A stretch of DNA of 64,000 bases from an uncultured Alphaproteobacteria bacterium (GCA_951801825.1 CATOOF010000002.1:100441-164440); one strand, 5' to 3'; shown: positions 1-50,480, counted from the first letter of the stretch. Program-made: numbers and translations. The notes: a model not told the origin generated them from the letters alone.

Positions 1-32
1 GCGCTTATTTATAGTGATGTTAGAAGCTGTAT

Positions 33-219
33 AAAAAAACCACATGAAGTAAGTTCAGGTGGTTGGAGGCAGAAAACAATACAAGATCGATTGCTCTGCT
101 TATTCAATATATTCGCAGACCTCCAACCAAAGGGTTGGACGTGTTTTACGCCCACGCGGGCGATCTTGTATTATGGAGTTTCTAGCCCCAATTAGTAACA
201 GGATTGAATACCGGTTATG
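33..219 (-). promoter_or_regulatory. Structured leader/attenuator RNA, copy E1B; the gene it controls lies beyond the left window edge
   Basis: Minus strand. TGaTATAAT -10 box at 226-234; HP4 at 122-139; conserved loop at 97-117, 21/21 nt identical to 28148-28168; antiterminator 120-128 pairs with 61-69; long-range pair 161-172/78-89; terminator stem 38-64 with U7 at 33-39. Confidence 0.7.
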
Positions 220-276
220 CGTTCCATTATATCATCGCAGCACGTGATTTCCAGCGAAAATGCCGCAATAAAATAT

Positions 277-442
277 AAAAACCCATCATAGGAAAGACGG
301 GCTGGAGGTTAACACTTTTGCACACTAGGTTGCTCACCGTTTATTTATGTATATCACGGCCCCCAACCCAAAAGGATTGGTCGCCCGCGTGGGCGCCTAG
401 TGAGCGAGGTGTTAAACTCGCATAACGGTCTTTTCCGTTACG
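277..442 (-). promoter_or_regulatory. Structured leader/attenuator RNA, copy E1A (no ORF directly downstream; possible sRNA)
   Basis: HP1 421-442, HP2 404-421, HP3 382-395, HP4 363-380, AU-rich loop hairpin 337-359; long-range pairs 409-415/309-315 and 396-402/323-329; antiterminator 360-369/299-308; terminator 282-301 with U5 at 277-281. Confidence 0.65.
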
Positions 443-448
443 ATATGT

Positions 449-27943: not shown

Positions 27944-28014
27944 TGTTCGGCCGCTTTTATAGCGGCCATTTTTTATTTCTTGTTTTATCAACCGGTAATG
28001 TATATAATATCAAA

Positions 28015-28228
28015 TGTCACAAAGTGTTTTTGTGATGGGGTGTGAAGACCTCTGCGTAAGCGTCGGAATATTAAGTCTGTGGTGTTTTGTATACATCGGA
28101 CTTGGCCTTTCGATGACAAGTAATCTCCTGGCCTTGGTCAGGAGGGTTGCGAATATATTGAATAAGCACACGGTTCTTACGATTGTCTTCAACCTCCTGA
28201 CCACCACAAAGCTGGTGGTTTATTCTTT
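28015..28228 (+). promoter_or_regulatory. Structured leader/attenuator RNA, copy E2
   Basis: Promoter TTGTTT (27980), 17 bp, TATAAT (28003); HP1 28017-28035, HP2 28037-28052, HP4 28125-28144, conserved loop 28148-28168; long-range pairs 28043-49/28185-91 and 28055-60/28176-81; antiterminator strand 28190-28202; terminator accacca/tggtggt with T-rich tail. Confidence 0.8.
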
Positions 28229-28253
28229 GAAAAAAAGTGGGGGATTGAGCAAT

Positions 28254-40225: not shown

Positions 40226-40261
40226 TTGTTCTTGTCTCCTGCTCTGTTCTTTCTGCGAACG

Positions 40262-40472
40262 AAAAAACCACCAAAACATTTGGTGGTCAGGAGGTTGAGA
40301 ACAATCCTTAGAATTGTGCTGTTTATTCTATATACTCACAGCCCTCCTGACCCGGGCCAGGAGTTTGTTTATCGTCGTAATACTAAAACGGGCGCACAAC
40401 GGCGCGCCTTAAGATTCTATTCCGACGCTAAGGCAGAGGTTCTCACACCTCATTCGCGGAACACCCGCGAAC
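40262..40472 (-). promoter_or_regulatory. Structured leader/attenuator RNA, copy E3
   Basis: Promoter TTGTAT (40507-02), 17 bp, TATACT (40484-79); HP1 40453-71; HP4 40344-63; loop hairpin 40319-41; long-range pairs 40439-45/40296-302 and 40428-33/40306-11; terminator accaccaaa/tttggtggt + U5. Confidence 0.8.
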
Positions 40473-40543
40473 AAGATAAGTATAGCCTGTATGCGGTAAA
40501 AATACAAACGAAAAAATCCCGCCGTCGCGGGATTGTGATTTGA

Positions 40544-50043: not shown

Positions 50044-50284
50044 ATATAAAGCATGTAAAATCAATAAGTTGCACAAAATAAGAAAGACGGCAGAAATGCC
50101 GTCTTTAATTTTTATCAACACTATATCAACAAATCGGAAGAAAAAATTTCTTGCACCAGAAAACAAAAGTAAATACATTTTGTGGATTTTATATCCCTGC
50201 CCCCCCCCCCAGTGACGTGCCATGGTACCTTTTGTTTGGTCTTTTGGTATTTACAATGGGGTAAATTCCTGATATAATACAAAT

Positions 50285-50480
50285 GAATCCAATGGGAATT
50301 GGGTTCGGGGTCTTTCAAAACCCATACGATACGGCGTGTGTTGCGTCGTAATCCGATTATGCCTGACCGCAAGGTCGGGTGTCTGTTGTTATATAACAGG
50401 CTTGTCCAAAAGCAACAGGGTCATTTATCGTATGATTTTGAAAACGCCCGACCGCCATTCCTTTGGCGGTTTAATTTTAT
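50285..50480 (+). promoter_or_regulatory. Structured leader/attenuator RNA, copy E4 (divergent sequence, same architecture)
   Basis: Promoter TTTACA (50250), 17 bp, TATAAT (50273); HP1 50285-306; HP4 cctgacc-gcaa-ggtcggg; long-range pairs 50313-20/50436-43 and 50324-31/50426-33; antiterminator 50373-82/50444-53; terminator accgcca/tggcggt + T-rich tail. Confidence 0.7.

Follow-up and report, generated by a model that had tools for sequence, protein, structure and literature searches.

The stretch of DNA analysed here (hereafter the window) comprises 64,000 nucleotides (nt) from an uncultured Alphaproteobacteria bacterium (GCA_951801825.1 CATOOF010000002.1:100441-164440) and carries two homologous RNA elements of about 220 nt each, E2 (28010-28229, plus strand) and E3 (40257-40478, minus strand). 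This text is concerned with E3, whose covariance-model match measures 222 nt and fits the span 40262-40472 that a first-pass annotation had given it. To judge by the relatives of its LeuRS, the host genome (897 kb, four contigs, 95.7% complete) belongs to the Candidatus Enterousia group, which comprises uncultured Alphaproteobacteria of the gut. E3 lies among leuS, rpiB and an M23 peptidase gene, flanked by the rpiB terminator (40534-40511) on one side and by the ribosome-binding site (RBS) CAGGAGA of a gene for a protein of 161 amino acids (aa) on the other. In the direction of transcription, the terminator of the upstream gene is followed by promoter-like boxes, E3, a second terminator and, about 20 nt further on, the RBS. 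This order leaves no space for a second promoter, and it is common to seven long and about 28 shorter copies of the element in this genome.

A strict sigma-70 consensus scan upstream of E3 called no promoter, and the one listed in Table 1 is deduced from its conserved position in the paralogues: TTGnnn and TATAAT-like boxes stand equally distant from the 5'-terminal hairpin HP1 in seven of seven long copies. The predicted transcript would start near 40472, at the foot of HP1. The product of the downstream gene has a signal peptide and many cysteines, and matches no Pfam family at E <= 0.1. E3 is best read as the 5' leader of a single-gene transcript for a secreted cysteine-rich protein. Paralogous secreted cysteine-rich proteins of 130-230 aa, likewise without a Pfam match and each with a leader of its own, are encoded downstream of the long copies; they share the C-terminal motif YRC.GYYG...C..C...G...CY.P...G....C.YSGS.

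Table 1. Features of E3 and of the gene that follows it, in window coordinates.
Feature	Position	Strand	Remarks
Putative sigma-70 promoter	40479..40507	-	-35 TTGTAT 40502-40507; 17-nt spacer; -10 TATACT 40479-40484
HP1, 5'-terminal hairpin GUUCGCGG-GUGUU-CCGCGAAU	40452..40472	-	Double changes at 7/8 pairs, 98.8% of cells paired (21 copies)
HP2, GAGGU-GUGAGA-ACCUC; shows a1-like UGAGAAC (40439-40445) in loop and 3' arm	40436..40451	-	
b1-like site CCUUAG	40428..40433	-	Pairs with CUAAGG of the H6 loop
P4 domain, CGUCG/CGACG enclosing GGAAUA... and hairpin GGCGCG-CCGU-UGUGCGCC, then CGUUUU	40373..40427	-	
HP4, CUCCUGGC-CCGG-GUCAGGAG	40344..40363	-	Invariant in long copies
Closing stem, 5' strand GGUCAGGAGG	40343..40352	-	Starts GGU (40350-40352); pairs with 40285-40294
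HP5, CUGU-GAGUAUAUAGAAUAA-ACAG, A/U-rich 15-nt loop	40319..40341	-	3/4 stem pairs covary
H6, ACAAU-UCUAAGG-AUUGU; loop carries b'-like CUAAGG (40306-40311)	40301..40317	-	
a'-like linker GUUCUCA	40296..40302	-	Between H6 and closing-stem 3' strand; complementary to a1
Closing stem, 3' strand CCUCCUGACC	40285..40294	-	Perfectly complementary to GGUCAGGAGG
Intrinsic terminator GACCACCAAA-UGU-UUUGGUGGUU, then UUUU	40262..40288	-	10 pairs (40288-40266); T-rich tail; minimum-free-energy fold
RBS CAGGAGA and regulated gene	RBS 40235-40241, ATG 40225, stop 39740	-	161-aa product

The first-pass annotation had compared E2 with E3 and proposed that stems were exchanged around conserved loops, and each part of that comparison holds. 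HP1 carries the same loop on a different stem (uucgcgg-GUGUU-ccgcgaa at 40452-40472 in E3, ucacaaa-GUGUU-uuuguga in E2), HP2 reads gaggu/accuc against ggggu/accuc in E2, and the enclosing stem reads cgucg/cgacg against cgucgga/uucgaug around different inner hairpins, while the stem of HP4 (CUCCUGGC/GUCAGGAG) is identical in both and its loop is ccgg in E3 and cuug in E2. RNAalifold, which the annotation had recommended for this pair, kept 50 of 50 pairs on E2 and E3, 11 of them by two-sided changes and two by one-sided change. The selection on RNA structure that it had suspected is also evident from 21 long copies of several species. Their shared fold, referred to below as the closed structure, comprises HP1, the P4 domain, HP4, HP5, the terminator and two long-range helices, P2 and P3. 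Of its 1158 pair cells 97.7% hold standard pairs, and double changes occur at 29 of its 56 pairs; 500 shuffles never did as well, and slid controls reached at most 53% paired. Folding by minimum free energy yields the closed structure for E3 and for nearly all other copies; that of E3 has -86.9 kcal/mol, with z = -6.75 relative to dinucleotide-shuffled sequences.

The long-range helices of the closed fold are P2 and P3, in which the loop and 3' arm of HP2 (UGAGAAC) and the linker CCUUAG pair with GUUCUCA and CUAAGG about 130 nt downstream. HP2 and the linker after it are thus pairing partners of distal segments rather than free loops. We designate these helices a1:a' (P2) and b1:b' (P3). Compensatory changes in them occur in nearly every copy, and for a1:a' (UGAGAAC:GUUCUCA) in paralogues and orthologues alike. 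All variable positions of P2 and P3 are paired in the 21 long copies (100%), with up to four pair types each; across 37 copies of this genome the two helices together are 95.3% paired and 17 of their 18 pairs covary, in alignments that, for both the 21 and the 37 copies, were fitted to models containing the long-range helices. For b1:b' alone, covariation was found at five of six pairs (100% paired) in the former set and at six of six in the latter. The local stem of HP2 (GAGGU/ACCUC) competes with the outer part of P2, and at 78.5-93% paired it is less well supported than the long-range pairing of the same nucleotides; it takes the forms GGGG/CCCC, CAGG/CCUG, GCGAG/CUCGC and UGGGA/UCCCA in various subfamilies. 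A leader peptide starting at the AUG within HP2 of E3 (MRCENLCLSVGIES and a stop codon) was considered and rejected: neither AUG nor frame is conserved in other copies, and no RBS precedes it.

The remaining domains differ in how widely they are conserved, and this bears on the candidate recognition elements that the annotation had named, namely the GUGUU loop, UGC..AGCGUCGGAAUA and the loop of HP5. Of these only the HP5 loop (GAAUAUAUUGAAUAA type) is conserved in most subfamilies, on a stem that is 93.9% paired. The other two are not family-wide. GUGUU is present in only 13 of the 21 long copies, where the consensus is GNNUU, and a UGAUAC-type loop replaces it in the short subfamily; the motif GCGUCGGAAUA sits in the inserted P4 domain, which only the long subfamily possesses. 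The inner hairpin of P4 has the consensus form in E3 and is atypical in E2. In E3 this hairpin (GGCGCG-loop-UGCGCC followed by a U-rich run, 40385-40408, minus strand) was itself called terminator-like (40408-40391); 17 of the 21 long copies have a terminator-like hairpin there, and E2 has none. H6 is 77.3% paired, with covariation at three of five pairs and subfamily variants ACAAU/AUUGU, ACUAU/AUAGU, GAUA/UAUC and CAUG/CAUG. We also noticed a self-complementary A/U stretch in the HP5 loop, AAUAUAUU in most copies, UAUAUA in E3 and GAUAUAUC in some short copies; judged by these sequences, HP5 loops of different copies could form kissing dimers.

A second fold competes with the closed one. Its key helix is a closing stem whose 5' strand shares nucleotides with the 3' arm of HP4 and whose 3' strand ends in GACC, the first four bases of the terminator stem. 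This stem encloses HP5 and H6 in a three-way junction, in which the loop of H6 presents b' and the 3' linker a'. What lies between promoter and RBS has the layout of an attenuator: a terminator hairpin with its U-tract, a helix overlapping it, and a third helix competing with that one. The terminator is found at the equivalent place in all copies and in E3 ends the element 20 nt upstream of the RBS, in keeping with the read-through framing of the annotation.

The alternative helices were assessed in 26 diverse copies, aligned by MAFFT without fitting to any structure. The closing stem is 94.2% paired there, with double changes at five of ten pairs, and HP4 is 93.6% paired, with double changes at four of six. 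The 3' arm of HP4 occurs in UCAGGAG, UUGGAG and UCGGGG types and, from one subfamily to another, covaries with each of its two partners, so that whole triples change together: CUCCUGr / GGUCAGGAGG / CCUCCUGACC, CUCCAAC / GGUUGGAGG / CCUCCAACC and CCCCGnC / GUCGGGG / CCCCGACC. All three strands are invariant in the long subfamily, as expected where each strand serves two partners. HP4 therefore shows no covariation between E2 and E3 or among the 21 long copies, and it is the comparison between subfamilies alone that supports it. On these alignments, two sets of helices covary and exclude each other. With the closing stem forced, E3 folds about 6 kcal/mol less favourably than in the closed structure.

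The RBS may take part as well. Its sequence is CAGGAG in long and UGGAGG in short copies, each matching the HP4 3' arm of its own subfamily. Owing to this match, the RBS is complementary to the HP4 5' arm (40356-40363) and to the 3' strand of the closing stem (40285-40294), which suggests a possible additional layer of translational control.

E3 belongs to a large family. Within this genome, blastn detected seven full-length and about ten partial copies, and a covariance model built from the seven long copies (R1) retrieved about 35 at E < 1e-3, roughly one per 25 kb: the seven long ones (~220 nt, >200 bits) and about 28 shorter ones (135-240 nt). Five are located in the window, at 30-205 (minus strand), 272-448 (minus strand), E2, E3 and 50279-50480 (plus strand). 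All copies have promoter-like boxes upstream, an intrinsic terminator at the 3' end, and an RBS and open reading frame 15-30 nt beyond. The long copies precede secreted cysteine-rich paralogues, and the short ones mostly precede helix-turn-helix (HTH) proteins of 70-105 aa. A mobile repeat, such as a miniature inverted-repeat transposable element (MITE) or a repetitive extragenic palindrome (REP), was ruled out by the fixed position relative to promoter, terminator and start codon and by the strong covariation. In one case (G000 C1:472360-472732), two leader copies stand in tandem about 200 nt apart before a single small gene, with identical a1/a' addresses (UUCAGAAC/GUUCUGAA).

Beyond this genome, R1 matches were found in 24 of 25 genomes of the genus. 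A core covariance model (R2), used for order- and class-wide searches, matched within the order in 14 of 20 genera and in 100 of 121 genomes, many of them with at least 31 scored copies each; elsewhere in the class its matches were weak and limited to seven of 199 genomes. Orthologues of E3 adjoin leuS at the same locus in at least eight other species. There the pairings of both addresses are kept or compensated: the a1/a' pairs read GUGAGAAC/GUUCUCA, GUGGAAAC/GUUUCCA and GUGACUAC/GUAGUCA, and the b1/b' pairs CCUUAG/CUAAGG, CAUAGG/CCUAUG, CACAAG/CUUGUG and UACUGG/CCAGUA. The leuS-adjacent orthologue was found in species whose LeuRS is only 70-73% identical (L064, L065, L058, L049, L043) and went undetected in most species with 76-82% identity, a distribution that points to patchy retention of the leader-gene cassette. 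Among the matches listed by a full-text literature search joining Enterousia to RNA terms, none dealt with such RNAs.

Since one of the two rival folds would disable the stop signal at its end, E3 is most likely an on/off switch. We consider it on balance probable, from the structural model, that E3 is a c4/Xcc1-type RNA serving in cis as a terminator/antiterminator switch. In the closed fold, a1/b1 would pair in cis with a'/b', the pairing extending into ACCUC of the closing-stem 3' strand; HP4 would hold the 5' strand, the terminator would form and transcription would halt before the gene. In the c4-like fold, the closing stem (40343-40352 with 40285-40294) would act as antiterminator, removing four of the ten terminator pairs, and RNA polymerase would read through into the gene. 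The HP4 5' arm (40356-40363), which competes for the 5' strand of the closing stem, would be the anti-antiterminator. The choice between the folds would in this way control termination. As the closed fold is the predicted ground state, the default is presumably OFF. Folds of E3 5' truncations of rising length, in which first b1:b' and then a1:a' form ahead of the closing-stem 3' strand, point to the same default, being minimum-free-energy folds and hence thermodynamic rather than kinetic. The gene would be turned on by whatever occupies a1/b1 or opens HP4. Candidate triggers are a small molecule, an RNA that binds a1/b1 or a'/b', or a protein that recognises the loop of HP5, which is conserved and in part palindromic.

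Several observations weigh against this proposal. The terminating closed fold is the ground state in essentially every copy, and none of the folds computed here showed a route to the read-through fold. The closing stem and the 5' arm of the terminator share no more than 3-4 nt in those subfamilies that were examined visually, and the pair counts for P2 and P3 lean towards these helices because of the way in which their alignments were fitted. The link to known RNAs is weak in terms of scores. The Rfam models of C4 (RF01695) and c4-a1b1 (RF03163) gave no match at E <= 10 to E3 and 20 paralogues, while phage P1, the positive control, scored 68.8 and 51 bits on them; conversely, P1 c4 is missed by R2. 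We rejected direct homology with this RNA on these grounds. An Rfam scan of the window at gathering thresholds returned only tRNAs, and one around E3 by E-value brought up nothing relevant. In E-value mode, sRNA-Xcc1 (RF02221, gathering score 53) matched eight of 20 copies below threshold (28-35.6 bits), and a search of the whole genome gave ten such matches of 28-41 bits, among them the E2 core at 31.5 bits; the best paralogue thus stays at 41 bits, and E3 itself has no match. Lastly, sites of the P1 a2/b2 type, sought in the 110 nt downstream, show a weak, non-general enrichment and do not appear to be conserved. Given its scores on the C4 and Xcc1 models, we class E3 as a variant and not as a member of either family. 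The Xcc1 matches are nonetheless in register with the closing stem, HP5, H6 and the linker. Three of them lie outside the window (29-41 bits; G000 C2:338974-339069, C2:235671-235763 and C2:325330-325420), and as two of these are missing from the R1 list, the family probably exceeds 35 copies.

The signal that selects the fold might come from outside the RNA pairings. In such a riboswitch or protein-dependent attenuator, a small molecule, or a protein bound to the loop of HP5 or HP1, would stabilise one fold, and the likeness to c4 would be convergent or merely ancestral. The classic three-helix terminator platform, the conservation of the HP5 loop in most subfamilies, the conserved unpaired bases flanking HP4 and HP5, and a copy number that would suit a regulon under one global signal all agree with this explanation. 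We nevertheless hold it to be unlikely. There is no conserved multi-helix pocket, and most copies are without P4, which is the sole large extra domain; conservation across subfamilies is limited to the HP5 loop and the switch strands, and E3 does not qualify as a metabolite riboswitch. The long-range helices differ in sequence in every copy, the regulated genes encode secreted cysteine-rich or small HTH proteins rather than metabolic or transport functions, no Rfam riboswitch family matched, and no candidate for a binding protein came to light.

Alternatively, the element could act in trans on its own kind, as P1 c4 or IsrK do. Terminated transcripts would release a c4-like core, possibly trimmed by RNase P at the GGU of the closing stem, whose a'/b' would then bind the a1/b1 sites of transcripts still being made at the same locus. 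The closing stem of these transcripts would thereby become free, which would produce a locus-specific positive feedback, or a negative one if the cis pairing favours read-through. Such an antisense RNA has precedents. The layout is that of P1 immI, in which RNase P excises C4 at GGW and the product works via a'/b', according to the passages of PMC5320573 that cite Hartmann (1995) and Citron & Schuster (1990), and the terminated short form of IsrK, from the Salmonella prophage Gifsy-1 (RF01394), acts in trans on its own read-through form (PMC4825925). The a/b combination is individual to each copy, and some copies have a weak a'-complementary site between RBS and AUG (AGAACAA in E3, with nothing comparable in E2). 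However, the diversity of the addresses is no higher than that of HP1, an ordinary helix, and a-addresses are common to several paralogues. The excess of cognate a' sites downstream is small (means 5.4 vs 5.0, p = 0.014, a value inflated by tandem copies), cognate b' sites are not in excess (p = 0.29), and the RCCA-like tail that follows the closing stem varies, reading ACCA in only eight of 21 copies. Moreover, no Hfq gene (PF17209) was found in this 95.7%-complete genome with its tens of c4/Xcc1-like RNAs, and a dependence on Hfq was set aside for that reason. We thus regard trans action of this kind as rather improbable, and are equally doubtful of its RNA-only version, in which each copy is a self-addressed switch whose terminated or processed core, pairing in trans by a private a'/b' combination, flips nascent transcripts of the same locus to read-through. 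If true, this version would mean that a reduced genome expresses a repertoire of small regulators and secreted cysteine-rich surface proteins one gene at a time, in a bistable manner resembling phase variation.

That E3 is simply a constitutive structured small RNA (sRNA) gene or a stabilising 5' untranslated region with a leaky terminator and no switching, its fold serving RNA stability or some other role in trans, seems very improbable: the closed fold is indeed the predicted ground state everywhere and a 5'-terminal hairpin is a common stabiliser, but the covarying second partner of the HP4 3' arm, which overlaps the terminator, is unexplained without an alternative fold, and the fixed spacing to the downstream RBS ties the element to its gene.

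If the cis terminator/antiterminator switch is real, its implications reach beyond this locus. The antisense RNAs of the c4 type are known as single regulators of phage immunity and as stand-alone sRNAs. Here, a c4-like layout is fused to a terminator and serves as leader of about 35 genes in a 0.9-Mb genome, and does so across a whole order of gut-dwelling, uncultured Alphaproteobacteria. The a1/b1 sites, long unexplained, would become cis partners that gate the c4 fold, and a phage antisense module would have been domesticated into a genome-wide attenuation system. This would explain the control of a large and variable family of secreted proteins in a lineage with very few conventional regulators. 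The sequences of the strongly covarying helices vary among the copies, which would make the family a natural set of near-orthogonal RNA switches as well.

E3 probably works like RNAs of the c4/Xcc1 type, and a distant kinship with them is probable. The closest parallel is the immI leader of phages P1/P7 (c4-a1b1, RF03163, and C4, RF01695; clan CL00128), where all parts stand in the same order and in the same structural places. In both, a -10 box is followed by a hairpin at the 5' end, immediately by a second hairpin that shows a1 in its loop and, a few bases on, by b1, which in P1 is single-stranded; a GGU-starting closing stem then surrounds two adjacent hairpins, with b' in the loop of the second (H6 corresponding to hairpin 2 of C4 and Xcc1) and a' in a linker of 6-8 nt before the 3' strand, and the regulated gene follows on the same transcript. 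Even the terminator-like hairpin between b1 and the core has its counterpart, the P4 inner hairpin in E3 and an isrK-like hairpin in P1. The differences concern the balance of the folds and the targets. The closing stem of P1, about 18 base pairs (bp) long, dominates the fold, whereas that of E3 (10 bp) loses to the cis a1/b1 pairing. A cis a1:a' pairing was also considered for P1 and is absent from its minimum-free-energy fold, so that the closed fold is specific to the E3 family. E3 adds the competitor arm HP4 and a terminator overlapping the closing stem, an overlap that P1 does not have, and its long conserved A/U-rich loop occupies the place of a UUCG hairpin in P1. In P1 the a2/b2 sites lie on the RBS of icd, whereas cognate sites do not appear to be conserved in the E3 family. 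Finally, P1 regulates icd/ant from a single phage copy, and the E3 family regulates other genes from tens of chromosomal copies.

Two other groups of comparable RNAs are also present in multiple copies. One is sRNA-Xcc1, which belongs to Xanthomonas integrons, prophages and genomic islands and has seven homologues in Xylella fastidiosa Temecula1 (PMC12189769). No other Rfam family scores on the elements, and the Xcc1 alignment takes in the closing stem and the two hairpins as well as the linker (UUUGA type) and the RCC tail. Like the E3 family, Xcc1 has several copies per genome. It is described as a stand-alone trans-acting RNA, in contrast to E3, and its model lacks an a1/b1 leader, a competitor arm and a separate terminator downstream. 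Acinetobacter baumannii possesses a large set of Group 1 C4-like sRNAs (PMC5320573), which resemble the E3 family in forming a paralogous c4-type set within one chromosome, in their 5' extension and in the GGW start of the core. They differ in matching Rfam C4 directly and in being described as processed trans-acting sRNAs, not as terminator-bearing leaders at a fixed distance upstream of genes.

Conditional termination as such links E3 to two further systems. IsrK is likewise a leader with a conditional terminator that gives a short RNA and a read-through mRNA, alternative structures deciding on downstream expression, and the a1b1 region of P1 scores 35 bits on the isrK model. IsrK differs in controlling translation of orf45/anrP in trans, and its model gave no match to E3 at E <= 10. 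Riboswitch and T-box platforms share with E3 the three mutually exclusive helices upstream of a U-tract, directly before the RBS. They sense through an aptamer or a specifier, neither of which is recognisable in E3, whereas the sensing part of E3 is apparently the RNA-RNA address pair a1/b1:a'/b' itself.

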